From the sequence record PZ171032.1: 64,000 nucleotides of DNA; one strand, given 5' to 3'. Each line of letters starts with the position of its first letter. Positions within the stretch are counted from its first letter, which is position 1. Below the pieces are notes generated by a model. It was not told where the DNA came from and ran no database searches. It saw only the letters and a program-made list of their open reading frames with translations. The position numbers were made by a program, and so were the translations under genes. Positions 5,086 through 57,897 of this stretch are shown one piece after another. The DNA is from a phage.

Positions 5086-5423
5086 TGGAAAGTATGCAAG
5101 TGAGGCAGATAGTTATGTACAAGCACTCTAGAGATCTTGAAAACGATGCTGTGTTTGGGGATCAGATGAAAGAGTTGGTTAAACTTATAGGCAGGATAGA
5201 GGATAAGTTTGACACTAAGATCTACATCGACAGCAAAGTATTCAACCACAAAATATGGACAAATCTGTGTGTTGGACTACATGGAGATAAAGATGTGGTA
5301 AATTTAGTTGTAATTAAGTTCATAGTGTGGCAGAATAAAACTATAAATTATTACGATCCACACCTGCTTGTTTACCCGATAAAAGACCTATTAGATAAGG
5401 AGGACTGCAATGCCGTTATTTAA
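5085..5423 (+). CDS. hypothetical protein
   Basis: 112-aa ORF in co-directional packed array. Confidence 0.45.
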   Translation: MESMQVRQIVMYKHSRDLENDAVFGDQMKELVKLIGRIEDKFDTKIYIDSKVFNHKIWTNLCVGLHGDKDVVNLVVIKFIVWQNKTINYYDPHLLVYPIKDLLDKEDCNAVI

Positions 5424-5679
5424 TCTTGCTAAACCTGTAGAAGCACACCAGTTTGACGGAAGCTCTTCATCAGTATCTGATCTGCAACGGTGGATTGATA
5501 CGGGTGTGTTTACATCGTCACCTGTTCGGACCAGAGATCTTCGTCGCATGTGTGAGCTTGTAGAGCCGTTTGGTAACCTAGTCTTGTACCAGGGTGATTG
5601 GCTTGTTGATTTTATGGGGGACTGGTTGGTAATGAGTAAAGAAGAGATGTTTAAAATTTTTAAGGAAGAGGCCGAGTAA
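5410..5679 (+). CDS. hypothetical protein
   Basis: 89-aa ORF overlapping neighbours by a few nt (translational coupling pattern). Confidence 0.45.
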   Translation: MPLFNLAKPVEAHQFDGSSSSVSDLQRWIDTGVFTSSPVRTRDLRRMCELVEPFGNLVLYQGDWLVDFMGDWLVMSKEEMFKIFKEEAE

Positions 5680-6962
5680 TGCATCAAATCAAAACAACAC
5701 TGTACGCACTGAACAAAGATGGCAGCTACCAACAGTGGAAAGTATTCACGGATGGTGATAAGGTTATCGTAGAGTTTGGCAAGCTTGATGGTAAACTACA
5801 ATACAAAGAGACGATCTGCACACCTAAGAACGTGGGTCGCGCCAATGAAACTACAGCTGAGCAACAGGCCGAGCTGGAAGCGATCAGTAAGTGGGAAAAA
5901 CAGGTCCGACTCGGGTACGTGGAGAGTATGGAAGATTGTGAGCAAGGTGTTGATCTTTTACCCATGTTGGTGCATGACTACCTGAAGCGTGGCAAGGCAC
6001 TTAAATTACCTTGCTGGATCTTGCGTAAGTTAGATGGCCTTCGTCTGCTTGTTGTTTTCCAAAATGGTGAGCCTAAATTTATTTCCCGTGGTAATAAGTC
6101 CTACCCTATTCAAGGAAAGCTTTTAGAGCAACTTCGTTCTTTCCATTCTACCACTGGGATTAAACAACTTGATGGGGAACTATACATTCATGGTCTTCCT
6201 TTGCAGAAAATAGTGTCTCTTGCTAAACGGTGGCGCACACAGGAAGAGATTCAGGCCGAGATCGATAAAGACTATGAGGCAGATAAAAAACGCCGTCATG
6301 CAGCAATTAAGGCAGGCTTATCAACATACAAAAACTTCAACAAGGTAGATATTCCTGTCGATGTTGAGCCTGTTCGTGATGATTTGCGTTACGGTGGGTA
6401 CTGTAGCTACGATCTGGAGTATCACATTTTTGATATTCCTAGCGACAAGGTGTGGTGGGATCCAGAAACAGAGTCTGGACGCTGCAAGGATCTTATGGAT
6501 GCAGAGGATACCGTTACCACTCTGATGCTTGACCATATCAAGGTTGTTGACGCAGAGCTTGCGTACACAGTTGATCATTGCGAAGAATCTGTTGGTATAT
6601 TCATGTCCGAAGGATATGAAGGTACTATCATGCGTAATTTCTGCGGTAAATACGAGTACGGTCAGCGAACATCTGAAGCATTGAAATGGAAAAAGTTCAA
6701 CGACGCAGAGGTGAAAGTTATTGACGTTGAGAAAGATAAGAATGATGAAGGTGTTCTTATCTGTGTTGACAAGGAAGGTGTTATTGTTAAAATGAAGATG
6801 AAAGGCACGCACGAGGAGCGTAGCTATGACAGGATGCAGGAAATGATCGGCAAGTTTGTCACCTTCAAATATCAATCAAGGACAGAAGACAACAACTACC
6901 AATTCCCTGTCGGTATCTGCGTCCGAAATGTTGACCCAGACACTTGGGAGGTTCTGGAATGA
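5679..6962 (+). CDS. ATP-dependent DNA ligase
   Basis: Motif I KxDG (ILRKLDGLR), motif IV-like EGTIMR, motif V-like KWKK; size about 427 aa. Confidence 0.7.
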   Translation: MHQIKTTLYALNKDGSYQQWKVFTDGDKVIVEFGKLDGKLQYKETICTPKNVGRANETTAEQQAELEAISKWEKQVRLGYVESMEDCEQGVDLLPMLVHDYLKRGKALKLPCWILRKLDGLRLLVVFQNGEPKFISRGNKSYPIQGKLLEQLRSFHSTTGIKQLDGELYIHGLPLQKIVSLAKRWRTQEEIQAEIDKDYEADKKRRHAAIKAGLSTYKNFNKVDIPVDVEPVRDDLRYGGYCSYDLEYHIFDIPSDKVWWDPETESGRCKDLMDAEDTVTTLMLDHIKVVDAELAYTVDHCEESVGIFMSEGYEGTIMRNFCGKYEYGQRTSEALKWKKFNDAEVKVIDVEKDKNDEGVLICVDKEGVIVKMKMKGTHEERSYDRMQEMIGKFVTFKYQSRTEDNNYQFPVGICVRNVDPDTWEVLE

Positions 6963-21731: not shown

Positions 21732-22010
21732 ATGAGCTGCGAAAAATCTTTTTTCATCATCATTTACGGTAAGGATAACTGCCCACATTGTGTCAGAGCA
21801 AAAGAATTTGCAATCAGCAAAGGTCTGCCTTTTGTATATAAGACACTTGGCGAGGGCTACACAAAAGAAGAGCTTATTGAGAAGTGCAGTCCAATTGTCC
21901 CCAGAACGTTGCCGCAGATCTTCTTAGAAAGCGATCTTGACAGTGTCCATATAGGCGGTGCCGACGATTTCATCTCTTTTGTTAAGAATGGTTTTGGAGA
22001 GAAAAAGTGA
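21732..22010 (+). CDS. glutaredoxin/thioredoxin-like redoxin (NrdH/NrdC-like)
   Basis: YGKDNCPHCVRAKEF CxxC active site; 92 aa; placed between RNR genes. Confidence 0.75.
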   Translation: MSCEKSFFIIIYGKDNCPHCVRAKEFAISKGLPFVYKTLGEGYTKEELIEKCSPIVPRTLPQIFLESDLDSVHIGGADDFISFVKNGFGEKK

Positions 22011-22867
22011 AAGTTGTAAAACGGGACGGTAGAGAAGAGTTCTATAACGGAATTAAGGTGATCAAGGCGGCAGAGTCCGCCTTACTTGAGTCTGGACATA
22101 CTGAAGAAGAAGCTTACCGGATCGCCTGCGCGGTTAATGAAGTTGTTGCTAACAATCTACCAACCGACCAGTGCACGATCTCTGTAAAAAATATCCATAT
22201 CCTTGTTGAAGATGCTCTTATGGATATGGGTTTAAAATGTGCAGCCAGAGAATACATCCAGTATAGACAGACAAGAGATAATAACAGAGAGGCAGGTGGA
22301 AAACTGCTTGCAGATATTAGTGGCTTCTTGGATCGAACTTGTGATGAATTTACAAAAGAAAACGCAAATAAGCCTACTAATCATGTACACACTCATCGCG
22401 ACCTGCTTGCAGGTATTCTTAGCAAACACCTTGCATCAACACAGATCCTGCCAGACCGTGTCTCCGAAGAGCACAATAAAGGATTCATCCATGTGCATGA
22501 TCTTGACTACTTGATCAGTCCGTTAACAAACTGTTGTTTGGTAAATTATCCAGATATGTTGGAAAACGGATTCAACATTGGTAACGCCCATGTCAGTAAG
22601 CCGAAGTCAATAGGGGTTGCAACAACAATCCTTAGCCAAATCTCTAGTGCGGTAGCTAGTGCTCAATATGGTGGTCAGACTATGAGCCATATTGATCATT
22701 ATCTGGCACAGTATGCTGAAGCGACCTATGAGAAGAACCTTAAATTTTGCCAGGAACATTGGTTGCCAGATGCTGAAACTGTTGCAATGCAAATGACAGA
22801 TAAAGACGTGTTTGACAGCATGCAGACGTTGCTTTATCAGATCAACACACTAACCTCGGTAAACGGT
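22007..22867 (+). CDS. nrdD: anaerobic ribonucleoside-triphosphate reductase, exon 1 of 3
   Basis: ATP-cone VVKRDGREEFYNG; sequence colinear with recalled T4 NrdD up to ...INTLTSVNG. Exon ends with U (GGT), followed by an in-frame TAA that opens the intron. Confidence 0.85.
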
Positions 22868-23124
22868 TAACAAACTGGCCGTTTTAAAACTCTGCTAACC
22901 TCAGTATGAGGGGTCAGCTGATCGCTGGCTAACGGGGAACGCTAAGGCGAAAGCTATGCCAATCCCGTGACTAGCTTCACAAGGAGTGAGGCGGTTGTAA
23001 CGACTAACCTTTTGGTGTAGGGATTATGGAAGATTCCGAAACGCAGGGGTCTGATTAATAATCACACGGTGTGATTTCAGGCAAGAGATAGTCTGGCCTT
23101 GTGGAAACATAAGGGTGGGGACCG
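22868..23124 (+). mobile_element. group I intron 1 in nrdD (257 nt, no ORF)
   Basis: Exon ends in U, intron ends in G. Internal guide GCCGUUU (22878-22884) pairs with the last 7 exon nt AAACGGU. R-like GTTGTAACGACTAAC and S-like AAGAGATAGTC core elements. Exon 2 reading frame resumes exactly as in T4 NrdD (NG|QTPF). Confidence 0.8.
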
Positions 23125-23424
23125 CAAACCCCTTTTATCACATTAAGTTTAGGTCTGGACACCTCAGTATTTGGTAGAATGATTACCAAAAACTACTTGA
23201 AAGTCCACAAAATGGGTCTTGGTGAAGAACGTATCACACCTGTGTTCCCTAAGGTGCTGTTCTTCCTGGAAGATGGTGTCAACATGAACCCTGGAGATCC
23301 TAACTATGATTTGAAACGATTAGCTCTGGAATGCTCTGCAGAGCGGATTTATCCTGACTTTGTTTCTGTTCCACTAAATCGTAAAGTGACAGGCTCGACA
23401 GATGGCAAAGTAACGAGCATGGGT
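23125..23424 (+). CDS. nrdD: anaerobic ribonucleoside-triphosphate reductase, exon 2 of 3
   Basis: Translation QTPFITLSLGLDTSVFGRMITKNYLKVHKMGLGEERITPVFPKVLFFLEDGVNMNPGDPNYDLKRLALECSAERIYPD... is colinear with the central part of T4 NrdD; the track ORF 23179..23433 is this exon. Confidence 0.8.
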
Positions 23425-24186
23425 AAACTATAACTGCTCATGTAAAATCTATCTAAACGGGGAAACTCCAGAACGGACAATCCCGTGCTAAACGTAACAG
23501 AACTCCTGACCAAGAGGAGTCCTGAAATGAGAAAACAAATTCGTGATTTTGAAGGTTATGAAATTGACGAGATGGGCAATGTTTATTGCACCCGCTACGA
23601 AAATGAAAGAATTATTCATTCGTGGGAAGAGATAAACACAGGTTACCGTCTTGTTAGGATACGCAAGAACAAAAAGACTGTTTGCCTAAGGGTTCACAGA
23701 CTTGTTGCTGAAGCGTTCTTACCAAATCCAGACAATTTACCCTATGTTAAGCACAAAGGGGACAACAGGAAAGATAACAGTGTGTACAACCTTGAGTGGG
23801 GAGCTTGCCCAGACAATACGCAAGAAGGATACAACAACAACTGTTATGCTTTTTACACAAGATGCCACGGTGTGAAAGCCACCAACAAATTAACTGGTGA
23901 GGTTTTCCACTTTAAAAGTCTGAGATGTTGTGCTGATGTTTTAGGAGTAGATAGAAAAAGAATATCTGCTATCCTGAAACGTGGTGCGCCTAATAACTAT
24001 GATTACGAGTTCTGTTACGAAATGCCTAACGACTAACCGTGATGAATGTAGCGGTGTAGGGTGTAAGCCGATGACACTCGAAATGGTAGACACACTAAGT
24101 GTGAAGATATAGTCTGATCTGCATGGGGACATGCAGCAGCACGTAAAGGTGCGGGGGTGGACTTGCGAACCACCCTGAACATAATG
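23425..24186 (+). mobile_element. group I intron 2 in nrdD (762 nt) carrying an HNH homing endonuclease ORF
   Basis: Exon 2 ends in U (ATG GGT), intron ends in G (..ACATAATG). Candidate guide GCUCAUG near the 5' end; S-like AAGATATAGTCTG near the 3' end. Exon 3 resumes at CRSFLS exactly as in T4 NrdD. Confidence 0.7.
23485..24036 (+). CDS. HNH homing endonuclease (intron-encoded)
   Basis: VHRLVAEAF...HKGDNRKDNSVYNLEW HNH_3-type motif; lies wholly inside intron 2. Confidence 0.75.
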   Translation: MLNVTELLTKRSPEMRKQIRDFEGYEIDEMGNVYCTRYENERIIHSWEEINTGYRLVRIRKNKKTVCLRVHRLVAEAFLPNPDNLPYVKHKGDNRKDNSVYNLEWGACPDNTQEGYNNNCYAFYTRCHGVKATNKLTGEVFHFKSLRCCADVLGVDRKRISAILKRGAPNNYDYEFCYEMPND

Positions 24187-25149
24187 TGTAGAAGTTTCTT
24201 ATCGAAATATAGCGACCCTGTAACAGGTGAGGAGAAATACCTTGGCAGATTTAACTTAGGCGTTGTTAGCCTTAACCTGCCAATGATTGCGGCAAAAGCT
24301 AAGATGGAAGGTGTTGATTTCTTTGCAGTTCTTGACGAATACTTGGATCTTGCATACGAGGCTCACCTTGTAAGGGTTAACCGTCTAAAAGGAACAAAGG
24401 CAGGGCAGAACCCCATCATGTGGTGTGAAGGCGCTCTTGCTCGCCTAGATCCTGAAGAAAGTATTGATAAACTCTTCTATGACGGGTACGCTTCCATCAG
24501 CATTGGGTACATTGGTGTGTATGAAACCTGTCAGATTTTGGGCAGAGAGGGTGACAAGGCTTTAGCTCTTGGAATCCTTCAGCACATGAGAGATGCTTGT
24601 GAGCGATACAAGAAGGAAAGTAGACTAGCATTTAGCTTGTACGGCACTCCTTCTGAGAGTCTATGCTATAAAGCTGCAACCTGTCTGGATCGTGAATATC
24701 CGGAAGTGTTGAAGCACGAGCATGAATATCTCACCAACAGTTTCCATCAGCCAGTGTGGATAAATAGCTCTCCTTTTGATAAGTGGGAGTATGAGGAAGG
24801 TTTTGCTATGATCTCCTCTGGTGGCAACATTGGATACGTAGAGACACCTAACCTGAAAAACAACCTGGATGCTTTAGAGGCTCTTGTTGACTTCGGGTAT
24901 AAACATATTATGTATTTTGGTATTAACCAACCTGTGGATAAATGTCTCAAGTGTGGTTTCTCTGGTGAGTTCAGTGCAACAGCTAAAGGGTTCTGCTGCC
25001 CTGCGTGCGGATGCCACGATGAACAATATATCTCAGTGATCCGAAGAGTGTCTGGATATCTTTCCAGTCCTAACTCCCGTCCTTACAATAAAGGTAAGCA
25101 AGCGGAAGTTATCGAGCGAGTTAAGCACTACGGAAGTTGTGGTTGCTGA
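24187..25149 (+). CDS. nrdD: anaerobic ribonucleoside-triphosphate reductase, exon 3 of 3 (glycyl-radical domain)
   Basis: C-terminal zinc site CLKCGF...CCPACGC and glycyl radical motif RRVSGYL; colinear with T4 NrdD C-terminus. Confidence 0.85.
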   Translation, partial: CRSFLSKYSDPVTGEEKYLGRFNLGVVSLNLPMIAAKAKMEGVDFFAVLDEYLDLAYEAHLVRVNRLKGTKAGQNPIMWCEGALARLDPEESIDKLFYDGYASISIGYIGVYETCQILGREGDKALALGILQHMRDACERYKKESRLAFSLYGTPSESLCYKAATCLDREYPEVLKHEHEYLTNSFHQPVWINSSPFDKWEYEEGFAMISSGGNIGYVETPNLKNNLDALEALVDFGYKHIMYFGINQPVDKCLKCGFSGEFSATAKGFCCPACGCHDEQYISVIRRVSGYLSSPNSRPYNKGKQAEVIERVKHYGSCGC

Positions 25150-25212
25150 TTCTTGACAAAAGCCACAAGGATGTGGCATATTATTGACACACAGTGAGCT
25201 AGGAGGTGCAGT

Positions 25213-25329
25213 ATGTCATCAGGTATTTATAAAATTTGCAAGTGCGGCTGTAGTTGTAATCTTCGTTGGTGCAAGGCACTAGACGATTTTATTTGGCATT
25301 GCCCTAAATGTGATGCGGAGTATCTATGA
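25213..25329 (+). CDS. small Cys-rich (zinc-ribbon-like) peptide, 38 aa
   Basis: AGGAGGTG SD 5 nt upstream of ATG; MSSGIYKICKCGCSCNLRWCKALDDFIWHCPKCDAEYL; stop overlaps nrdG start (ATGA). Below the track size cutoff. Confidence 0.45.
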   Translation: MSSGIYKICKCGCSCNLRWCKALDDFIWHCPKCDAEYL

Positions 25330-25799
25330 ACATTGCTGGATACACAGAAGTATCTTACACAGAAGGGCCAGGTATTAGAACTGCCTTGTGGGTATCTGGG
25401 TGCCCACACGCTTGCCCTGGTTGCTTTAATCAGGCATTTTGGTCAAAAGATAAGGGGAGGGAGTTCACTGAAGAAGATTTGCAAAAAATCTTGTCAGATC
25501 TGGATAACCCGTCTGTGTGCGGTATCTCTCTGCTGGGTGGAGAACCATTAGCATACTATAATGAGCCAGGTATTATTAGCCTGATGGAGAAAATTAAGGA
25601 AAAATTTGGTGACAAGAAAACTATTCTTGTATATACTGGGTTCACATTTGACCATATCTCTAGTGATGTTCTTAAACTGGCTGATATCATCATTGACGGT
25701 AAGTATGTAAAAGATTTACCAACCAAGAAACCGTTCCGAGGCAGTGATAACCAAAGAATGTTTAAAAAAGTATCAGGTGGTTGGGTTCAGGTAGACTAG
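25326..25799 (+). CDS. nrdG: anaerobic ribonucleotide reductase activating protein (radical SAM)
   Basis: CPHACPGCFN CxxxCxxC cluster motif; 157 aa; directly downstream of nrdD. Confidence 0.85.
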   Translation: MNIAGYTEVSYTEGPGIRTALWVSGCPHACPGCFNQAFWSKDKGREFTEEDLQKILSDLDNPSVCGISLLGGEPLAYYNEPGIISLMEKIKEKFGDKKTILVYTGFTFDHISSDVLKLADIIIDGKYVKDLPTKKPFRGSDNQRMFKKVSGGWVQVD

Positions 25800-25977: not shown

Positions 25978-26324
25978 CACAAGAACGTATCGATTTGGCT
26001 AATAAGTTTGTAGACCTCATTTTGCCACGGTTAGTTACTCAACATGCAGATGCTATTTCTACTAATCTTGATGGCTTACGCCTAATGCTGAATCGCACAG
26101 ATGACCCTCGTATTCGGGCTGATTTAGAAGCCTCTGCCAACAAACTGGAAAAGTTCTTGCAAGTAGACACGCAAGAAGCCTTGCACAAGATTATGGTGGA
26201 AGGTTTCTCTAAAGAATTTACCATTAAAGAGCTTAAGGAGCTGATCCACCAAGAAGAGATGAATATCCGAGTTCAGGCTGTTGCAAGCAGCATGGAAGCG
26301 GCTATTGAAAAACTGTTGCAGTAA
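25974..26324 (+). CDS. hypothetical protein
   Basis: 116-aa ORF, GTG start. Confidence 0.45.
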   Translation: MTQERIDLANKFVDLILPRLVTQHADAISTNLDGLRLMLNRTDDPRIRADLEASANKLEKFLQVDTQEALHKIMVEGFSKEFTIKELKELIHQEEMNIRVQAVASSMEAAIEKLLQ

Positions 26325-26362
26325 AAGTACTTGGCACATCTCAATCTGAAAGGAGTCCCAAC

Positions 26363-27151
26363 ATGGGTCGAGCTAAAGAAACAAAACGCATGCGTGATGA
26401 AGCTAGAGAGGCTCGCAAATCTGATCGCCTGCGTAAGGCTGCTGAGAAATTTGCTGACGAAAGAGAGCACACCGCTCCAGCTCTCCGACCAATGAATAAG
26501 AAGCAGCAAAAGTATCTTGATTATCTAGGGTCACGTAAGATTATTATTGTAAACGGCGTGTTTGGATCCGGTAAGACATTCATGGCATCTGCATATGCAG
26601 GTGATCTTCTGCGTAAGAACGAGATTGATAAGATCATTGTTGCACGCCCTTACGTTCAGACAGGGAAGACTTCAGGATTTAAACCTGGAAATGCAATGCA
26701 GAAACTGTGGCCCTATCTTCGAAGCATGATGGACACGATTTGTCGCCGTGTTGGCAAAGGTGCTTTTGCCGCAATGCTGGGAGACGGTCAGAACAGCCGT
26801 ATCGAGATTTGTGAAGTTGAAAGCATTCGTGGTCGTAGTTTCGATGAGCGATGCTTTGTCCTGATTGACGAGGCACAGCAAACTAACCCTGAAGAAATGT
26901 TGTCAATTATCACAAGGATCTCTGATCAGGCCACCCTTGTAATTATGGGGGATAATAGCCAACGTGACATCCCTGGTAAATCTGGACTTGCATGGGTGAC
27001 GGATTTCTTTACTCGTCATCCAGATCCTGATGTTGGAATGATCAGCTTTGATAGTCCAGACGATGTCGTTCGTTCCGGGTTGGGTCGTCAGATCGCACTC
27101 AATCTTATTGAGGATCGTGCAAATCATATTTGGACCCCTGTTTCCGAGTAA
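26363..27151 (+). CDS. phoH: PhoH-like ATPase
   Basis: Walker A GVFGSGKTFMA and PhoH-typical downstream blocks; 262 aa. Confidence 0.85.
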   Translation: MGRAKETKRMRDEAREARKSDRLRKAAEKFADEREHTAPALRPMNKKQQKYLDYLGSRKIIIVNGVFGSGKTFMASAYAGDLLRKNEIDKIIVARPYVQTGKTSGFKPGNAMQKLWPYLRSMMDTICRRVGKGAFAAMLGDGQNSRIEICEVESIRGRSFDERCFVLIDEAQQTNPEEMLSIITRISDQATLVIMGDNSQRDIPGKSGLAWVTDFFTRHPDPDVGMISFDSPDDVVRSGLGRQIALNLIEDRANHIWTPVSE

Positions 27152-27195
27152 TATAGAAGGGTGGTTATTCCACCCTTAAATATCTAAAACAGTTG

Positions 27196-27224
27196 TTGAC
27201 AAATAGGCAAGCTTTAGATATTAT
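27196..27224 (+). promoter_or_regulatory. sigma70-type promoter (TTGACA-17-TATTAT)
   Basis: Consensus hexamers read directly. Confidence 0.7.
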
Positions 27225-27252
27225 TATCGGACAAAACAAAGAGAAGGACAGT

Positions 27253-27564
27253 ATGGCTACAATACAAGAGAGATTGAATAAAATATACTGCCTGTTTGTC
27301 TATAACGGCGAGACAATTTTGGCAAATAAAGGATCCAAGAATGTGTGGACCAAGGACAGCGGTGGTAATATAATTAACTTAGCGTTGCTACGTGAGCGCC
27401 GACACAGATTCTTTATCGAGTCTCGAATTATTGAAAGCAGCACTTGCTACAGAACAGGCGATAAAGTAATTGTTGACAATGATACGTGGTATGTGGTAGA
27501 CTGGCAATCATTGAGTTGTGATGCTTCTGACAATCGTAAGTATTCCATAGTGATTGCTAAATAA
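27253..27564 (+). CDS. hypothetical protein
   Basis: Start moved to MATIQERL (GAGAAGGA SD) downstream of the promoter, which overlaps the track ORF start. Confidence 0.45.
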   Translation: MATIQERLNKIYCLFVYNGETILANKGSKNVWTKDSGGNIINLALLRERRHRFFIESRIIESSTCYRTGDKVIVDNDTWYVVDWQSLSCDASDNRKYSIVIAK

Positions 27565-27624
27565 AGGTAAATGTGAATCAGGTTTAAATAAATAGCTTTC
27601 AACTTCCAATATTAAGGATTTCTC

Positions 27625-28674
27625 ATGAATTTAACACCTCGCAGCACCATGGTACACGGCATGAAAGAAAAACAGAACGGTTTCGAACCTATGAGTAATA
27701 AAATGTTTGGTATGCCGGGCGGTATCATGGAAACATACAGCTACCCAACACCTGTTGTTGACCACGTTCTTTATATCGACGATTTGGAAGACCTGCAGGA
27801 TCATATGTCTCGTCTGCAGACGATCCGTATGGCTCAGCCGGAAGAAAGCATTCGGGTGATCATCAATAGCCCTGGTGGTTGCGTGCACATTGCAATGGCT
27901 TATCTGCAGGCATTCCGCGAGTCTCAGGCAAGCGTTGTTGCACATGCTGAAGGGATGTGCTGCTCTGCGGGAACAATCTTATGGCTGGGTTGTAAAGAAC
28001 GCACTGTGGCTCCGGACACAGAATTTATGTTCCACTATTATCAAGGTGGCACTTATGGTAACGGTGTGAACATGAATACTCAGGTCAGCTACTGGAAAAA
28101 ACGTTTTGAACGCCTGATCGAAAAATACTACGGTGGGGTGCTGACAGAAGATGAGATCGCATCCATCACAGCTGGTGGCGAAGTGTGGTTGGACGGAGAA
28201 GAGCTGGCAGCACGCACTGGAGCTATTATTCTGGATGAAGGCAACATACAACGCATCCAGAACGGACAAAAACCGAAAAAGCTTCTGGCAAAAGGTGATG
28301 AAGAAGGCGTGTTAGGTGAAGCAGGTCTTCCGGAGATTCACCAGTGCACATCTTTAGATGAGTTAGTTCATGCTGTTGAATCTGCAAAAGCGGGTGGTTC
28401 GAAAGGTGATGTTCACACTGTGTTCCTGAATCTGCAGATGGAAAGTGGCGAGACCGTCAGAATTGCCCTGGGTGAGATTACTTCAGAAGATCTGCAGAGA
28501 TTCTCTGTCGTTGAACTTCAGGATATTCTGTCTCAATTGAAGACTACTCTGAACGGCGGTGAAGAGGTTAAGGTGAAAGATAAGACGCGCAAGCGTCTGG
28601 TGGACAATATTATTAAAACAGCAAAAGAGCTCAATGAAAAAATCCTGGGTGCAGGAATTGTCGAAGAAGCTTAA
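27625..28674 (+). CDS. ClpP-family (S14-like) serine peptidase with about 150-aa C-terminal extension
   Basis: VIINSPGG, catalytic-Ser context GMCCSAGTILWLG, His context FMFHYYQ, in ClpP order. Confidence 0.55.
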   Translation: MNLTPRSTMVHGMKEKQNGFEPMSNKMFGMPGGIMETYSYPTPVVDHVLYIDDLEDLQDHMSRLQTIRMAQPEESIRVIINSPGGCVHIAMAYLQAFRESQASVVAHAEGMCCSAGTILWLGCKERTVAPDTEFMFHYYQGGTYGNGVNMNTQVSYWKKRFERLIEKYYGGVLTEDEIASITAGGEVWLDGEELAARTGAIILDEGNIQRIQNGQKPKKLLAKGDEEGVLGEAGLPEIHQCTSLDELVHAVESAKAGGSKGDVHTVFLNLQMESGETVRIALGEITSEDLQRFSVVELQDILSQLKTTLNGGEEVKVKDKTRKRLVDNIIKTAKELNEKILGAGIVEEA

Positions 28675-28686
28675 ACATTAATTCTA

Positions 28687-28712
28687 AAGCCCTCTTCGGA
28701 GGGCTTTTATGA
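28687..28712 (+). terminator. rho-independent terminator (AAGCCCTC-ttcg-GAGGGCTT + TTAT)
   Basis: Read directly after the ClpP-like gene. Confidence 0.7.
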
Positions 28713-28725
28713 TCTGGAGATTTGC

Positions 28726-29259
28726 ATGACTTGTGCTAGAAAACCTGATGAACAACGTAACGCCTACGATGAGTATGTGACACCGGAGTGGTGTGCAGAA
28801 GGGCTGTATGACCTTATTCCGTTCCCAGAAGACTGGACCTACTTAGAGCCTTGCAGGAATAGTGCCTCAGGTGTGTTCTACTCCCGTATGCCGTTAGGAT
28901 CTGCATGGGGAGAAATCCAAGAAGGTGTTGACTATCTGAATACAGAATACAACCATGTTGACTGTATTATCACCAACCCGCCGTACAGCCTGGCTCGTGA
29001 GTTTGTGGACAAGGCGTTGAAAGATGCCGACGTAGTTATTATGCTTTTGCGTCTTAATTTTCTGGAAAGCAAGGCCAGATTTGAATGGTGGCTTGATAAT
29101 GCACCTACCACTGTGATTACAATATCTAAGCGCCCGTCATTCCAATCCAATGGTAGAACGGATGGGCAGGCATATGCATATTTTGTATGGGACAAGAAAA
29201 ACCGTCTAGACTTGCCGCCATTTATGTGGTTGGCACCACCAGAGGTAGATTTGAAATGA
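28726..29259 (+). CDS. small DNA methyltransferase (NPPY motif; N6-adenine or N4-cytosine)
   Basis: DCIITNPPYS motif IV; 177 aa. Confidence 0.6.
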   Translation: MTCARKPDEQRNAYDEYVTPEWCAEGLYDLIPFPEDWTYLEPCRNSASGVFYSRMPLGSAWGEIQEGVDYLNTEYNHVDCIITNPPYSLAREFVDKALKDADVVIMLLRLNFLESKARFEWWLDNAPTTVITISKRPSFQSNGRTDGQAYAYFVWDKKNRLDLPPFMWLAPPEVDLK

Positions 29260-29540
29260 AAATGAGTGCTAAGGACAAGTTGCACCAGTTAGCGCTAAAA
29301 CGTCCTGTAACGCTCCCTGACGAGCTTAACTCCATTTATGATGCGATTGTAGGGGAGATACAAAATAAAGCGTTAGCAGGCTTTCTGGGATGCGGATTTT
29401 CGATAAATCTACCCTCACATCTCTCAGATTACTTCCCGCATATTGTTGGGGATTTGAGGGCAGGAGGTCTGCAGGTAGATGTTGTTGGCATCTCTCCAGA
29501 GAAAAATAGCACGGTTGCCTACTTGACAGTAACCTGGTAG
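29256..29540 (+). CDS. hypothetical protein
   Basis: ATGA overlap with MTase stop. Confidence 0.45.
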   Translation: MKMSAKDKLHQLALKRPVTLPDELNSIYDAIVGEIQNKALAGFLGCGFSINLPSHLSDYFPHIVGDLRAGGLQVDVVGISPEKNSTVAYLTVTW

Positions 29541-40990: not shown

Positions 40991-41119
40991 CACACAATAT
41001 TAGATGTCCGGCTAAAGTGCTGGAAGCACCTATAGCATATCTTTCAACTAAATTTCCTACCACCACAATCACTTACCTCCCACACATGACTGTTTGCTTG
41101 TTTAGTGAGCAGTCATGCC

Positions 41120-41147
41120 TTGACATTCTTGCCTATCCTGATAAAAT
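41120..41147 (+). promoter_or_regulatory. candidate sigma70 promoter (TTGACA-16-TAAAAT) firing into the ORF-free region
   Basis: Read directly; no ORF of 60 aa or more follows for about 900 bp. Confidence 0.4.
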
Positions 41148-42489
41148 TAAGTTCTTCTCTTTTCTTTTACCGAGTAATTCGGGTTTTCTGTTCTCTTCGG
41201 TTTGAAGGGGTATGGAGATACACCTGAGTGAACAGGGTGAACAACCGAACATTCGGCTATGGCATTAGCATGGCGAAGCGAACGGGTGACGAAAGAGGGG
41301 CCGGAGGACACCAGTCACTGCCATATGATATATGGGTGATAACCTGAAGAGTCTGAATAAGTGTTTAAGTACCAGTCAGAGGAAAAGGTGAATGGTAGCC
41401 GAAGGGGGAGGGGGGGTTTCTTGTATCTTTAATTTGTATATTATGTATACACTTGTAAACCAATTTCATCTGAATCTGTTTACCATACAAAGTGGATTGA
41501 GACAAATATTACCTATTAAACTTGAATTATTTATAGAAAATACCACAACACACCTTAAGTCTTTGATTTTACACATAAATCCTACAGATATTCAACCTCC
41601 ATATTTAACATACTTGTAACATATCCTATACCACACCTGCCTGATCAATTTCCCCAACTACATCCTCTATATTTTACCTGCCTGTACTACCCCTGCCCCG
41701 CCGGGAGTCCCGTCATATCTGGCTTTCCAGCAAATATCCCACCAACAAATATCATTGCCTGAAGAGGGTTTCATCCCATAATACATGCCTTATCTGAAGA
41801 GCGCTTCATACACCACGTAAATTTTTTAATTGACCCCTCCCCGCCGCCGGAGAGGTTGGCTTTTCCCACACAGACCTGAAGAGTCAGCCAGAAATATCTG
41901 AATAGGCCCAATTCTACCACGATTTTGACCTGACCTACAGGGAGGCCCGAAGGGTCTAGCTTTCAGCTAGAGTCCTTGCAGGACCTACAGGAGTGCTGCC
42001 AGGCGGACGGAATGGGAATACTTCTCATTTTTATAATAATTCTCAAATATCGAGGCAGTGAGGCAAATTAATAGGTGAGGCCGTTCACACAGTGGCACAA
42101 CATTTGCAACCTATCTTGTGTGGGGGAATGATAATACCTATCATTGTGAGAACCATTATCATTACGGGCAATTTAACATAATACCCATTATGCGCACCAC
42201 TGGCGATACATACAGGGATTGATAACATGAGTTACAGTTTACGCATATAACAATTATATTTCTTATCATTTGTGTGGGATATAGTTAGCAGCCAATAGAT
42301 TAGATATTGACCTGCATACTTCCAACCGTCTAGACGTCTAAACGCCCACACACCAAGGATTATACATACACTCCTGAATGTAAACAGGGCCGCAAAAATG
42401 CTACCATACAAGCTTGTAAATTTTTCATGCAGCACTTGACAAAGAGGAGAAAAACTTGTCTGACATAATGTGACCTAACTGACACAACA

Positions 42490-42590
42490 TGACACTTTTA
42501 CACACCTATTAGTTTACACACTGGATTGTTTACATTCCTGATTGTTCACATGCTAACCATTTACATGATTGACTGTTTACACACCGATAA
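42490..42590. repeat. iteron-like array: six copies of a TTTACA(C/T)-containing motif at roughly 15-bp spacing
   Basis: Read directly: cTTTTACACAcc, aGTTTACACAct, tGTTTACATtc, tGTTCACATgc, cATTTACATga, tGTTTACACAcc. Confidence 0.6.
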
Positions 42591-42594
42591 TCAG

Positions 42595-42843
42595 CCATGC
42601 CATTCGTTTGCATGACAATAATTATACATGACAATAATCGCACTGATTATAATTAGCATGACATAATATAAAAGCAGGGCAACTATTAGCAGATCTATAG
42701 TTGCCCTGCTTGTTATGTCATGATTAACTAAATACAAGGCAACTATGATCTGATTAATAGTTTGCAGACAAACTATCACGGGGGTGATGGTTACTGCTTT
42801 TATATTATGTCGCGACTCCGTCGCGCCATGCCATTCGTTTGCA
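42595..42843. repeat. direct repeat pair CCATGCCATTCGTTTGCAT (about 230 bp apart) flanking a perfect 14-bp-stem palindrome (42673-42710) and CATGACAATAAT repeats
   Basis: Read directly. Confidence 0.6.
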
Positions 42844-43454
42844 TAGTTGCCTTATTGTTACAGGTAAAATAATTACATTATTAATTATTTCTTATCTTTC
42901 TCTTAGTCATCTAATGATTCCAGTCAGTATAGTAATGTACAGTAAACATTAGACGACTAAATATTTCTATGCTTATGATAACTTGCCGTGACAATTTCGG
43001 ACTGTTTACGAAAAATGTTGACACCTGGGCGGGTTTATGTTATGCAGTTTACACGAATAATTATTTCATACAGGTATTGACTATTCCGTTATTCTGTGGT
43101 TGGAATAAATACTTTGCAGGCTATAGAATGGTGTGCGTACGTGAATTCTAAGATCTGGCGGCTATAGTTACACCCGATTTTTCACGTAGAACACGCTTTT
43201 TGGTTTGTGTAAGTGTATGACTTATAAAGATTTTTAGTTGTTGACAGGATATTGAAGATGTGCATCAGGTTAAATTTTGTGCAATAGCTGCAGTACGTGC
43301 ATTTTTGGAAGGAAAAACGTGTAAAAATGGTCCTGCTACCACATAATGAAAGATTATGCAATAGCTATTTTATATGTATATTTGTACAGTGTGTGGGATT
43401 GATGGCTCGTCAATTATTCCACTTGCTGGGTGGGGCCGTTTGTGGTAGGAGGAG

Positions 43455-43486
43455 AGCAGACAAAAAGAAAGGGGCCTAAGCCCCTT
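43455..43486 (-). terminator. rho-independent terminator for the leftward block (AAGGGGC-ttag-GCCCCTT + TCTTTTTGTCTG on minus strand)
   Basis: Read directly, just downstream of the last minus-strand gene. Confidence 0.7.
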
Positions 43487-43505
43487 GATAATGTAAATTG
43501 TTGTA

Positions 43506-43770
43506 TTATTTGTTACTCATCCAGTTTTCCCAAGCTGCCTGATAATCTGCCTCACTGCGGCGGATCTCTTCTTGTTCTTCAAGCCGGATCTCTTCTTCCA
43601 GGTACCCCAAGATATCGGCTTTTTTTGGTCTGGCGTAACATCCAATCATCTTTTTTACGGGTAAAGATCTTATATGCTTTCTCGCAAACCTCTTTTTTGC
43701 TACCTTTTTGGACTTCAAGAACTTTGTAGGCCATGTACTGAACTAGTTTGAGCTGATCAAGACGTTTCAT
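43506..43770 (-). CDS. hypothetical basic protein; two overlapping frames (43579..43770 and 43506..43718) joined across an A7 run
   Basis: AAGAGG SD before the 43770 ATG; frames switch at CCAAAAAAAGCC (about 43605-43615). Confidence 0.4.
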
Positions 43771-43833
43771 GATGTTTACCTCTTTATGGGGTTCTGGTTT
43801 GGTGTGGGCCTTTTGGCCCGTGTCATTATCTTA

Positions 43834-51230: not shown

Positions 51231-51645
51231 GGTATGCCAGCTCCTCTTCCGCAATTTCAAAAAACTCAGTCCAGCACTGTGGCATATTGGAGTTACCGAA
51301 GTGGCTTTCATAGTAAAGGTTCTCACCACTTGGAAGATAGAAATCTGTTACCTCATAGAATCCACAATCGTCGCACTCGCCTTCTTCAAACTTAGCCTCA
51401 ACCTTAATACCGAGGAAGGTGAAAAGTTTATGGATATCTTCAGTTTCGAACTCCCAGTGAATGTTGTTTTCCGCATCGGTGTAGAACTGGATCAGCAGAC
51501 CATTGTCCAGTTTACCAAAATACTCTGTGAAGTAACTTCCTTCCCAGAAATCTTTATGACAAATAATATCCATGCGTTTGCCCATAATAATGGTGTGAGC
51601 GTTTTGGGCATCGTCACGAATCAGTTTTGGCATTTCATAGATCAT
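51220..51645 (-). CDS. hypothetical acidic protein
   Basis: 141-aa ORF. Confidence 0.45.
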   Translation of the reverse strand: MIYEMPKLIRDDAQNAHTIIMGKRMDIICHKDFWEGSYFTEYFGKLDNGLLIQFYTDAENNIHWEFETEDIHKLFTFLGIKVEAKFEEGECDDCGFYEVTDFYLPSGENLYYESHFGNSNMPQCWTEFFEIAEEELAYRDY

Positions 51646-51713
51646 CTTAGTTCTCCGGGTTCAACAGGTGGTGGTGCTACAGGAAGATCATAAAACATGG
51701 CTATCACAGTCTC

Positions 51714-51911
51714 TTACACAGGAATTGCTTCAAACAGGCCGTTATCTATACCATCCTTCAGATAAAGATTATACTCTATGTCGGTATCTGTATAAAGGGC
51801 AGCATCCAGCATTCTATCTGTGAGTCCATCCATTGGGTGGAGAAACCACCACCCACGCCAGTCAAAGTAACAACCTGGTGCATCTTCTCTTACACGGATT
51901 CGATAAATCAT
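51714..51911 (-). CDS. hypothetical protein
   Basis: 65-aa ORF. Confidence 0.4.
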   Translation of the reverse strand: MIYRIRVREDAPGCYFDWRGWWFLHPMDGLTDRMLDAALYTDTDIEYNLYLKDGIDNGLFEAIPV

Positions 51912-52007
51912 GGGCAGTGGCCTCCTGTTAGTTATACATCCCAGTTTTCTTCGTTCATCACGTCCTCCCGTTTTATGAAGTTATAATTGCACACCTTTCA
52001 ACCTGTG

Positions 52008-52424
52008 TCAACAGAAAACTTCAACAAATTCTTCCACAGTTTTAATGTCGTGGGAAAAAGGTTTACGGCTATAACGGGCAATAGCACTATCAACCACCGC
52101 CCGGTACTCAAGATCTTCAGAGTATTTCATGAAGCATTGCAGTGTTTCTGGACAGATAGCCAGATAGCTCCACCACCCTTCATCAGATTGATAGTCAAAG
52201 CCCATGCTCTCCAACCATGAAGCATATACTCCAGCACCCTCAAGCCAGTGAGTATTTTCATCCAGAAACTTGTTAACAGACATGTGAGCTTCTAAGCACT
52301 TGTCCAGCTCTTTTCCGTTAACCAGCCACGCACTGACCGTGGCGCATCCAAGGTCTACAGATTGAGTTGACAGGTTGTATTGGTCATAGTTCTCAGGTTT
52401 AACAATGATATCTTCTAATGTCAT
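52008..52424 (-). CDS. hypothetical protein
   Basis: 138-aa ORF. Confidence 0.45.
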   Translation of the reverse strand: MTLEDIIVKPENYDQYNLSTQSVDLGCATVSAWLVNGKELDKCLEAHMSVNKFLDENTHWLEGAGVYASWLESMGFDYQSDEGWWSYLAICPETLQCFMKYSEDLEYRAVVDSAIARYSRKPFSHDIKTVEEFVEVFC

Positions 52425-52486
52425 TTTTCAGATCTCCTTATACAAAAATGCCCCACCCTTTCGGGCAGGGCTATGTCAGTTAGGTG

Positions 52487-53110
52487 CTAAAAGTATTCAT
52501 AGAGGTATCCATCGGGAGCTGGAATTTTTTCATGAATGTAGTAATCAACACATATTCCGGTTTCTCTTCTACAAGAGTTGTGGGATACCCATTCTTTAAG
52601 AATGTTGCCATTCATGTCCAGCCTCCTTACATTTTTACACCGTCTACCGCTGGTGCTTCTATGCAACAGAATATCCTCCGTCTGCTTGTCTTTATTTTCT
52701 CCCCAGGTCGTTAAACGGATATTATCAAAAGAGTACCCTTTGAAATCATCTATCCTGTCACAAGAAGGCTTTTTCCTTTTGTCGTATCCGCTGGCTACCC
52801 ACTGATCATACAACTCTTTGTAACCGTTTAGGTATAGCCACTCCTTAAACTCTTTTTTGGTGTAAGTCGGAGGAGGGTGACCTCTTTGCTTGCTGTTGCA
52901 CTTTTGAGACTTGTACAGCACGCGTATTACACCTTTTTCTGAAGAGTCGTGGGAAAACTGGTCAGCCTCTCTGCTGGCCTTCTTACAGCACTCTTTGCAC
53001 TTATTAAGATGACCGTCAGCCATCTTTGGATGTTTGTAAAACTCGGAGAGGTTTTTCACCTCTCCGCACTTGATGCACCTCTTACAATGCGTAGATTCTA
53101 CTTTTACCAT
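52487..53110 (-). CDS. zinc-finger protein, possibly a free-standing homing-endonuclease-like gene
   Basis: N-terminal CKRCIKCG...CKECC zinc finger with F.K motif and basic C-terminal region; no catalytic motif recognised. Confidence 0.3.
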
Positions 53111-56412: not shown

Positions 56413-56811
56413 TCAATGGCTATTTTCAATCAGCCACACAGGGTCGAGGTAAATTTGTTGGCGTGTTGCCCAATGACAAACTTCATTGTACATCTGAATC
56501 TCTTTGTCCGTCAGTTCACGAATAGGCTCATCTATACCCTCATTTTTGTGGTAATCCCAGTCGGCATCGATTTCCCACAGCCATGACTTGTTGTCACCAC
56601 GCTTACGCACACAGAAGTCACCGGGACGGCCTGCCAATGCATTTAAGAACTCGTTCTCCGCTCGCTCTTGGAGAATACTAAGGAGCAAAACGTTAGAACA
56701 TGACCGTAGAATATGCTTCAGCTCACAATCATCAATCTCAACTTCAATACGTTGTTTGACTGTGTGGGTACCTTTTACTAACATCCTACCTCCTCTAAAC
56801 GAACTCTGCAA
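56413..56811 (-). CDS. hypothetical protein
   Basis: 132-aa ORF. Confidence 0.45.
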   Translation of the reverse strand: MQSSFRGGRMLVKGTHTVKQRIEVEIDDCELKHILRSCSNVLLLSILQERAENEFLNALAGRPGDFCVRKRGDNKSWLWEIDADWDYHKNEGIDEPIRELTDKEIQMYNEVCHWATRQQIYLDPVWLIENSH

Positions 56812-56989
56812 GGGTTGTGTTGTTCACTGCACCGCAGTAAATGGAGTATCCCAGCCCATTAGAGTGCAGAAACCACGGCGTGCCGAAATTATCTTTCACG
56901 TAGACATCGCCGTTGCTTGTAAAGGGCCAATATTCTTCACCAAGGGTGAAATACCTACTCATACCCTCAGCCAGATACTTTACTTTCAT
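56795..56989 (-). CDS. small protein, paralog family B
   Basis: YFTLGEEYWPF...YVKDNFGTPWFLHS... aligns with neighbours. Confidence 0.5.
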   Translation of the reverse strand: MKVKYLAEGMSRYFTLGEEYWPFTSNGDVYVKDNFGTPWFLHSNGLGYSIYCGAVNNTTLAEFV

Positions 56990-57213
56990 AGGCCCTCTTC
57001 AACAGCTACAAACTTGGCAAGCAGGGTGGTTCCGTAGATATGATACTCACCGTTTGCCAGATGGGAGATAAACCAGGCAATCCCTTCCTCGTCTTTAATC
57101 ATCTTGTTTGCACGATTTTTATCGTAATAAACCTCGTAGGTCTTTCCTTCTTTAAAGAATGACAGGTCTGTCATCTTTTCTTCTACAAAAGTAGCTTTAA
57201 CCAAAGTTGTCAT
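56986..57213 (-). CDS. small protein, paralog family B
   Basis: FFKEGKTYEVYY...MIKDEEGIAWFISH... Confidence 0.5.
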   Translation of the reverse strand: MTTLVKATFVEEKMTDLSFFKEGKTYEVYYDKNRANKMIKDEEGIAWFISHLANGEYHIYGTTLLAKFVAVEEGL

Positions 57214-57584
57214 TGATCGGTCTCCTTCTTGTTAAGTCTGAATACTGCAATAATAGCATTCCCAAGGTGCAGTGTCAAATCATTTCCAAGATACCACAGC
57301 ATTCCACGGTCATCTTTGATGAAAGGGTGACAATCTGGTGCCTTCCAGACATTGTACACTTTCCCAACCTGAAAGAAATCAGGCCCTGTTGGGATTTTAG
57401 TGCCTGGCCACACTTGAGATACCTGAACACACTCCACCTGCATAATAACAGGGATAGTCATGGATGTAAATGTTTTTGTTGGTTCTACTACCATAAAAGT
57501 CTCCTCTTTGCTCAACAACACTTCCATGTGTTGATAGTTTACATTAGTGACAATCACCCCAATTACGACCACACAGGTATTCAC
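57210..57584 (-). CDS. protein with C-terminal paralog family B domain
   Basis: FFQVGKVYNVWK...FIKDDRGMLWYLGN...; N-terminal part may be shorter than the track ORF. Confidence 0.45.
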   Translation of the reverse strand: MNTCVVVIGVIVTNVNYQHMEVLLSKEETFMVVEPTKTFTSMTIPVIMQVECVQVSQVWPGTKIPTGPDFFQVGKVYNVWKAPDCHPFIKDDRGMLWYLGNDLTLHLGNAIIAVFRLNKKETDQ

Positions 57585-57897
57585 CTGTGATCTGGAACGG
57601 GACGCCCATCATTTTAGAAGCTTGCCAGAAGCAATGCACCACCATTTCACCCACAGGGCTCCAGATAAGTTCAAGCTTTCCGTCATCGTTCAGGATAGGA
57701 TCGTACACCGTGTTTCCGTCTCTGTCAACCACTTCGTTTCCGTCCTCATCCTTGCGTGCCTTTTTGTACTTATGACCGTCGAACACATGAAGTTTGGCCT
57801 CCTGCTCTGCCTTAAATGCTTCCAGTTCTTCAATTGTGTCGAAGGTGTACACAGTCTTATACTTCGGTGTGTCAGGCACTTGAAGTTGGTACTCATC
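57544..57897 (-). CDS. DNA polymerase (family A, T7 gp5-like), exon 2 of 2 (motif C to C-terminus)
   Basis: Exon begins DEYQLQV, completing ...YYH|DE (motif C HDE); C-terminus ...GEYLCGRNWGDCH matches recalled T7 gp5 end ...GKMGPNWAICH. Confidence 0.75.
   Translation of the reverse strand, partial: DEYQLQVPDTPKYKTVYTFDTIEELEAFKAEQEAKLHVFDGHKYKKARKDEDGNEVVDRDGNTVYDPILNDDGKLELIWSPVGEMVVHCFWQASKMMGVPFQITGEYLCGRNWGDCH

Follow-up and report, generated by a model that had tools for sequence, protein, structure and literature searches.

The 64,000-nucleotide stretch of phage DNA in record PZ171032.1 (the window in what follows) carries, at 27625-28674 on the plus strand, a gene for a ClpP-fold serine peptidase of the rV5 gp122 family which, judged by profile scores and alignment, is not a true ClpP and is probably not the prohead protease of its phage either. 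The catalytic serine and histidine of ClpP are retained, most of the surface on which ClpX and ClpA dock appears to be lost, and the gene sits away from the head module, in a block with phoH. The explanation we favor, and which we consider about equally apt to prove right or wrong, is that of an ATPase-independent, non-virion cytoplasmic peptidase belonging to a middle replication and nucleotide-metabolism block, with a C-terminal domain that recruits a substrate or a partner. What appears to be undescribed in the literature searched is the failure of both the ClpP and the head-maturation tests, loss of the docking pocket, a private C-terminal domain and recurrent linkage to phoH.

The source phage is a Vequintavirus, that is, an rV5-like Escherichia coli myovirus. 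Over 26300-29300 the DNA is 98-99% identical to PDX, nomine, JohannBauhin, JES2013 and more than 100 other phages, and the product of 27625-28674, which matches the JES2013 and FFH2 protein at 100% identity, corresponds to rV5 gp122. The existence of the gene is thus not new, since published work and more than 100 genomes already carry its annotation; the rV5 copy was entered as "ClpP (ATP-dependent) protease subunit" in 2013 (PMC3606486 Table S3), and the full-length PHROG match of the gp122-type protein is phrog_5410, "ATP-dependent protease" (4.9e-155). The open reading frame (ORF) and its start read as follows.

27625-28674, plus strand: ClpP-like serine peptidase gene (rV5 gp122 family, phrog_5410, by profile and sequence matches), 349 amino acids, ATG start
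27614-27618, plus strand: Shine-Dalgarno sequence AAGGA, 6 nt 5′ of the ATG, from direct reading of the letters

Met23 was considered as an alternative start; it has no Shine-Dalgarno sequence upstream, whereas the ATG at 27625 has AAGGA, and 27625 was retained. A side observation from the same comparisons is that 18 or 19 GenBank records named 'Campylobacter phage' (host Campylobacter jejuni), some of them unannotated, are 98-99% identical to this region (MG065635, MG065653, MG065658, MG065661, MG065662 and MG065682 among them); either mislabelling or co-isolation has put rV5-like coliphages under these names, or the stated host needs to be looked at again.

An earlier, sequence-only reading of this DNA had called the product a ClpP-family serine peptidase, and that assignment is borne out. 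Pfam CLP_protease (PF00574) matches residues 59-168 above threshold (E = 2.1e-12, 47.7 bits against a gathering score of 20.2); the motifs quoted at the time, INSPGG, GMCCSAG and FMFHYYQ, are present at residues 80, 110 and 134; and an AlphaFold2 monomer model, built from a 20-sequence family alignment, has the ClpP fold. The parts of the modelled protein, with their confidence as predicted local distance difference test (pLDDT), and the catalytic codons, placed by alignment to ClpP, are these.

27625-27753, plus strand: N-terminal residues 1-43, predicted disordered (pLDDT 32-38), with no match to the ClpP axial-loop region
27754-28269, plus strand: ClpP-fold catalytic core, residues 44-215 (pLDDT ~90)
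27964-27966, plus strand: codon of catalytic Ser114
28033-28035, plus strand: codon of catalytic His137
28180-28182, plus strand: codon of Glu186, at the ClpP Asp171 position
28270-28413, plus strand: linker, residues 216-263, of low confidence (pLDDT 42-62)
28414-28653, plus strand: family-private C-terminal domain, residues 264-343, a beta-hairpin and three helices (pLDDT 73-91)

In Foldseek the core matches more than 1000 ClpP chains over 160-188 aligned columns, and it meets the cellular ClpPs at E ~2e-10 with a template-modelling (TM) score of ~0.69 normalised to ClpP length, handle helix included. Aligned to ClpP, S114 corresponds to S97, H137 to H122 and G85, in the oxyanion loop, to G68, and all three are invariant in 20/20 family members, which diverge to ~41% identity. 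The position of ClpP Asp171 is less strict: it is Glu in this protein (Glu186), in CR9 and in Pakpunavirus, Asp in ICP1 and Gln in 4MG and Hena1. A triad that does not align had been named beforehand as grounds for abandoning the peptidase assignment; Ser and His do align, and it is the third member alone that is relaxed. From these residues the gp122-type protein is probably catalytically competent.

The ClpP core ends near residue 200-215, which leaves a C-terminal extension of ~135-150 residues, in agreement with the 150 residues claimed earlier. As modelled, this extension is a disordered linker followed by an ~80-residue family-private domain, and it is not scaffold-like: no coiled-coil or scaffold-like character was found in the C-terminal region, residues 264-343 returned no fold relatives, scaffold-like or other, and the domain is restricted to the gp122 family among 1.84 billion proteins. 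The linker varies across the family in both length and sequence and is probably flexible; in the N-terminal 43 residues, invariance across the family is limited to Y40 and P41.

Relation to phage head-maturation proteases

The hidden Markov models that score best against the protease domain are those of ClpP-related head-maturation proteases. NF045542 ('head maturation protease, ClpP-related') is the best NCBIfam model, at 2e-16 and 60.4 bits, short of its cut-off of 120, and the PHROG head-maturation families (phrog_1684, 94, 2976 and 133) match at 1e-14 to 9e-22. Two comparators encoded in head modules, Gordonia phage Blino gp4 and Vibrio phage K254 gp4, each lying between portal and major capsid protein (MCP) genes, have in common with the gp122 type an acidic residue where ClpP has Met92 and an E-x-W motif where it has Asp171; the motif reads GEVW here and AETW and DETW in Blino and K254 gp4, and the ClpP letters are RDRF. 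Head-maturation proteases, moreover, often consist of a protease domain followed by a C-terminal extension, and they are presumed to be ATPase-independent. The sequence-only reading had raised the possibility that the protein is a protease-scaffold fusion moved out of the structural module. As a statement about ancient origin this idea has merit and is plausible, given that head-maturation models give the protease domain its best scores and that their E-x-W is present; displacement is not supported as something recent, nor as an account of what the protein does now.

The structural genes lie outside the window, and the head module was read in JohannBauhin, which is 98.7% identical here. Its order is portal, a 139-residue protease, scaffold, decoration protein and MCP; the protease is of the Peptidase_S78_2/XkdF type (9.6e-18), the MCP is gpE-like (Phage_cap_E, 5.7e-40) and the decoration protein was assigned by PHROG. 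A separate prohead protease, which the sequence-only reading had suggested looking for, is therefore present in the head module of a close relative. In phage lambda, gpC/Nu3 consists of a ClpP/SppA-superfamily protease domain followed by a C-terminal scaffold region, with the scaffold nested, and C belongs to the head operon, where it is flanked by the portal gene on one side and the decoration and MCP genes on the other. The rV5-like phages resemble lambda in having a gpE-like MCP, and the slot of lambda C is occupied in them by the XkdF-type protease and a separate scaffold.

Virion composition and timing bear on the same question. Mass spectrometry of rV5 detected 19 virion proteins, and gp122 (38,541 Da) is absent from them. 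For Certrevirus CB7, mass spectrometry gave 26 virion proteins, the head-module protease CB7_5 among them, and that part of the virion listing which was accessible does not name the ClpP-like protein (PMC7344957). In RNA-seq of Vibrio phage ICP1, which has a homologous gene in a like neighborhood, the ClpP-like gp211 is classed as 'Middle-late', the same class as nrdB, PhoH (gp208) and gp209-210, and the capsid operon gp122-126, which includes a protease of its own, gp125, is late (PMC7567579). Detection in virions, which together with scaffold-like processing had been set down in advance as fatal to the sequence-only reading, was thus encountered neither in the rV5 set nor in the accessible part of the CB7 listing.

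Position points the same way. tblastn found ClpP-like genes in 945 phage records; in a sample of 11 non-head-type lineages with such a gene, it lay within the head module in none (0/11). The location of our gene outside the head module, which the sequence-only reading had stressed, therefore stands, given the flanking phoH and methyltransferase genes and the separate head module of JohannBauhin, but its premise that ClpP-like peptidases usually lie beside portal and capsid genes is only partly true. In sum, the gp122-type protein is probably not the prohead protease. A protease-scaffold fusion as the present function is not supported, since relatives keep an XkdF-type protease and a scaffold, the extension is not scaffold-like and the protein is absent from the rV5 virion set and from the CB7 virion proteins listed in the accessible part of that report.

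A subtler structural role deserves more attention, although we regard it as unlikely: gp122 could be an auxiliary morphogenetic protease, a relocated head-maturation enzyme that is targeted to the procapsid by its C-terminal domain and, alongside the XkdF-type protease, cleaves head, scaffold or internal proteins. The profile matches, the E-x-W motif and the acidic Met92-position residue all fit this, as does the long extension of Blino gp4, and the middle-late expression of the ICP1 homologue would place the protein in the cell as assembly begins. However, relatives have a dedicated protease and scaffold beside portal and MCP, and ICP1 has gp125; the ClpP-like protein was not seen in rV5 virions or, within the accessible CB7 listing, in those of CB7, where the head protease was seen; the gene lies outside the head module in 11/11 lineages, and its promoter-like site is of the sigma70 type and not the late type. 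The NF045542 score stays at 60 bits against 120, and the C-terminal domain is unrelated to scaffolds.

Relatives of the protease domain itself, under the name 'ATP-dependent protease', occur in other large virulent phages. ICP1 gp211, Certrevirus CR9 gp221, KLEP7 gp112, Barbavirus gp072 and Pakpunavirus orf40 (phrog_1827 and phrog_5410) have a homologous protease domain at 30-36% identity. Like gp122 they have a non-head location, often just downstream of PhoH, and several are long-tailed (326-383 residues). Unlike gp122, those outside Vequintavirinae have tails without detectable sequence homology, and some short forms (182-245 residues) have no tail.

The Clp docking surface

Cellular ClpP (E. 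coli; MEROPS S14) and the gp122 type are alike in the fold and handle helix, the INSPGG loop, the Ser and His sites and an acidic residue, Glu186, at Asp171. They differ in being only ~20% identical, and the clpP equivalog model TIGR00493 gives gp122 33.2 bits where its cut-off is 308.6. The contrast is sharpest in the pocket that receives the loops of the unfoldase, which was mapped by profile-profile alignment to the ClpPs of E. coli, B. subtilis and S. aureus (hhalign probability 95.8%). F112 is a residue that we take to belong to this pocket; the rest of the residue list was checked against bioRxiv 10.1101/2023.03.01.530711. The mapped positions are as follows.

ClpP L48: Q65 here, Q in 20/20 of the family
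ClpP F49: T66 here, L, V or T in the family
ClpP Y60: R77 here, R in 20/20 of the family
ClpP Y62: I79 here, V or I in the family
ClpP F82: E99 here, E in 20/20 of the family
ClpP I90: H107 here, H in 20/20 of the family
ClpP M92: E109 here, E in 20/20 of the family
ClpP F112: T127 here, T in 20/20 of the family
ClpP L114: A129 here, S or A in the family

Six of the 9 positions of what in ClpP is the hydrophobic IGF/IGL-loop (acyldepsipeptide, ADEP) pocket are therefore invariantly polar or charged in the 20-member family (Arg, Glu, His, Glu, Thr and Gln), and the ICP1, CR9 and Pakpunavirus homologues are also polar at the pocket positions checked. Gly185 stands at the Arg of the ClpP Arg-Asp ring sensor. 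Residues 1-43 do not align with the N-terminal axial loops of ClpP and are predicted to be disordered, and the 135-150 residues of linker and domain at the C terminus are additional to the cellular protein. On this alignment the gp122 family is not a true ClpP, most of the ClpX/ClpA docking surface being lost. Since the equivalog model fails and the docking pocket is gone, the product name 'ATP-dependent Clp protease proteolytic subunit' is unsupported and probably misleading. This is of practical consequence, as that name is used in well over a hundred Vequintavirinae genomes, with similar names in hundreds of other phage records.

Degradation of host proteins, one of the roles offered in the sequence-only reading, is a possible role, but it would hardly run through host ClpX or ClpA, because the IGF-loop docking pocket is largely polar. 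The corresponding model, in which ClpP-like rings act as a surrogate ClpP and dock the host ATPases, so redirecting ATP-dependent proteolysis, seems to us improbable. The E. coli host does supply ClpX and ClpA, the full ClpP fold is there with its handle helix, PF00574 is above threshold and Ser and His are conserved; but most of the aligned docking positions are invariantly polar or charged, the N-terminal 43 residues have no axial-loop counterpart, the sensor Arg is Gly185 and the ClpP equivalog model is missed by a wide margin.

Nor does a close relative of the phage offer an obvious partner. No Clp-type unfoldase is annotated in the complete JohannBauhin genome, and the sole AAA+ protein there, a MoxR-type ATPase, was rejected as a candidate, being encoded ~50 kb away with no evidence of linkage. 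That ATPase (56645-57829 in JohannBauhin) and a 'putative metallopeptidase' of 486 residues (51533-52993) belong, in rV5-like genomes, to another early or middle block outside the window (locus L011, 6646-7830 and 1534-2994, respectively). The rV5-like genomes thus encode at least 3 predicted proteases.

Gene neighborhood and PhoH

Around the protease gene the following features were found.

26363-27151, plus strand: PhoH-like ATPase gene, 262 amino acids (PF02562, 3.6e-47; phrog_170, 8.6e-75)
27196-27224, plus strand: sigma70-type promoter-like site TTGACA-17-TATTAT, 11/12 consensus positions, the equivalent of rV5 P121
27253-27564, plus strand: small ORF of 103 amino acids, rV5 gp121 homologue, with no assigned function (phrog_5456, 3.8e-39)
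28686-28713, plus strand: intrinsic-terminator-like hairpin and U-rich tail, rV5 t122 (-14.9 kcal/mol, z = -2.28)
28726-29259, plus strand: N6-adenine methyltransferase-like gene, 177 amino acids (phrog_799, 8.1e-67)

The position between phoH and a methyltransferase gene, as described in the sequence-only reading, is right as to the flanks, but phoH is not directly adjacent, since the 103-residue ORF at 27253-27564 intervenes. This gp121 homologue sits between the promoter-like site and the protease gene, and the predicted promoter and terminator bracket the 2 genes, which are probably co-transcribed. The claim of an own terminator holds. A consensus terminator scan gave nothing on the plus strand after the protease gene; we set this negative aside because direct reading and folding revealed a clear hairpin, AAAGCCCUC-UUCG-GAGGGCUUU at 28686-28707, GC-rich with a UUCG loop and followed by UAUGAU. 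P121 and t122 were predicted independently for rV5 (PMC3606486 Table S4), and the hairpin at 28686-28707 is identical to t122. The label 'early', in contrast, derives from the predicted sigma70-type promoter, and timing has been measured for the ICP1 homologue alone, which falls in the 'middle-late' class. The window contains no exact copy of the rV5 late-promoter motif TGGTAAAATA; the motif's single 1-mismatch site, at 27363-27372, lies within gp121 and overlaps a sigma70-like -10 element, and it was not taken as evidence for late transcription. PADLOC matched neither the protease nor gp121, and Rfam and ARAGORN found nothing over the whole window.

Comparison across phages shows that much of this arrangement is conserved. 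In 4MG, Erwinia Hena1 and Cronobacter CR9 a block homologous to the present locus gene by gene has the order PhoH, an ORF of ~205 residues, the ~103-residue gp121 homologue, an ORF of ~160 residues, the ClpP-like gene and the methyltransferase, and the rV5 genus carries a reduced version of it. The weak gp121 homologues of these 3 phages hold the equivalent position, and their methyltransferase orthologues, 59-65% identical, lie directly downstream of the ClpP-like gene. A t122-type terminator is absent from all 3, where the protease stop codon abuts the methyltransferase start, and the terminator is for that reason specific to the rV5-like phages. In Rheinheimera Barbavirus the trio PhoH, Clp and Dam-methylase occurs in the same order.

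Two minor observations concern these neighbors. The gp121 homologue is weakly similar over its full length to the ~103-residue ORF of 4MG and Hena1, and its residues 61-84 also resemble the C-terminal part of the adjacent ~160-residue ORF (40-46% over 20-24 residues; the ORFs compared are 5201-5509 and 5517-5999 in locus L003, and 5200-5514 and 5522-6001 in L005). The 2 intervening ORFs of the larger block may be mutually related, or gp121 may be a remnant or a fusion. In Pseudaeromonas KLEP7, PhoH is annotated as 2 overlapping ORFs, gp115 and gp114 (locus L017, 2393-3174), just upstream of the 383-residue ClpP-like gene; such a split might stem from a frameshift or a sequencing error, or it might be programmed.

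In 8 of the 11 sampled lineages PhoH lies 0-3 ORFs upstream of the ClpP-like gene (several Vequintavirinae genera, an unclassified metagenomic phage contig, ICP1, Barbavirus and KLEP7), and in Pakpunavirus, Sugarlandvirus and a T4-like vibriophage it is not near the gene. The linkage may have been inherited as part of a syntenic nucleotide-metabolism block, as ribonucleotide reductase and glutaredoxin are also nearby, or it could reflect a functional link between PhoH and the protease. Under the second alternative the PhoH-like P-loop ATPase would partner the ClpP-like peptidase, possibly together with the small intervening ORFs, in a two-component machine. The recurrence of the linkage while PhoH identity between groups falls to 21-27%, the co-expression of both genes in ICP1 and the remodelling of the canonical ATPase-docking pocket into an invariant polar surface speak for such a partnership. 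Against it, the adjacency could be mere inheritance with ribonucleotide reductase and glutaredoxin, which are likewise conserved nearby, 3 lineages lack it, and PhoH-family proteins are tied to RNA metabolism, not to protein unfolding; we would give it little credence. The fuller version, a phage-specific ATP-dependent degradation or remodelling machine whose polar surface docks PhoH or the private C-terminal domain, is in our view a similarly slim prospect.

Finally, a non-catalytic decoy or inhibitor that co-assembles with host ClpP or caps it, blocking host proteolysis, is very improbable: loss of the docking pocket would indeed render mixed complexes unproductive, and some relatives have Gln as third member of the triad, but Ser, His and the oxyanion Gly are invariant in 20/20, which argues for retained catalysis, and ~20% identity to ClpP makes co-assembly doubtful.

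A proposed role, and other features of the window

The favored explanation, an ATPase-independent cytoplasmic peptidase, can be put as a sequence of steps. The gene would be transcribed together with gp121 from the host-type sigma70 promoter P121 in mid-infection, with transcription ending at its own terminator. The protein would be an old offshoot of the lineage of ClpP-related head-maturation proteases, now resident beside phoH, which for peptidase activity still has Ser114 paired with His137, Gly85 in the oxyanion loop and a Glu where ClpP has Asp. It would self-assemble in the infected cytoplasm and work there without a Clp ATPase, most likely so because the hydrophobic docking pocket has mostly been replaced by invariant polar or charged residues, and the family-private domain on its flexible linker would select substrates or a partner. 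ATPase independence, action in the cytoplasm and the recruiting role of the C-terminal domain are the elements that we infer.

Several points weigh against this explanation. In the 4MG and Hena1 lineages a Gln occupies the third place of the triad, and activity may therefore be modest or differ in mechanism. The docking-pocket argument uses an alignment at ~20-26% identity, with INSPGG, SAG and His137, all invariant, as its anchors. The best-scoring models are those of head-maturation proteases, and a protease with a long C-terminal extension is the layout of head proteases too, Blino gp4 being an example. The virion negatives are weak, since rV5 mass spectrometry detected only 19 proteins and it is common for a maturation protease to be lost from the head; in ICP1, 'middle-late' expression coincides in part with the time at which assembly starts. 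A literature search found no biochemical or genetic work on any member of the family, and a search on non-structural phage ClpP-like proteins and Vequintavirus transcriptomes returned nothing relevant, the phage transposon-sequencing preprint that came up concerning an unrelated jumbo phage.

To specialists gp122, as a conserved and catalogued gene, will be no great surprise. If it is indeed a stand-alone cytoplasmic protease of mid-infection, it would be among the few phage-encoded proteases with a non-morphogenetic role, and its substrates, possibly host takeover factors, defense factors or phage regulators, would be worth finding. The rV5-like phages are candidates for therapy and biocontrol, and ICP1 ranks among the major model systems. 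The recurrent linkage of PhoH to a ClpP-like gene is likewise a testable lead on phage PhoH; were a PhoH-protease machine to exist, it would give the first concrete biochemical role to the widespread phage phoH gene, whose function is not established.

Two further features of the window stand apart from the protease. The nrdD gene for a class III anaerobic ribonucleotide reductase, at 21779-25397, is interrupted twice when compared with the uninterrupted JohannBauhin gene, to which its flanking pieces are 93-99% identical. The first insertion, 22867-23123, is 257 bp with no long ORF; the second, 23425-24194, is 770 bp and carries an HNH-like ORF at 23485-24036 (183 amino acids). Both probably represent introns or homing-endonuclease insertions; such elements have been reported in other genes of Certrevirus CB7. 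Rfam at the gathering threshold found no group I intron in the window, the nrdD insertions included.

The other feature is an ORF-poor region of ~2.5 kb at ~41000-43800, which has the lowest GC content of the window (0.389), in which the coding strand and GC skew switch sign and in whose JohannBauhin equivalent no coding sequence is annotated. It contains a repeat cluster at 42594-42860, with a perfect pair of 15-nt hairpin arms (AAGCAGGGCAACTAT and ATAGTTGCCCTGCTT), further copies of the GGCAACTAT type, an exact 20-nt direct repeat, GCCATGCCATTCGTTTGCAT, with the copies 231 nt apart, and a perfect 18-nt inverted repeat. A replication origin or a divergent regulatory region may be located here.

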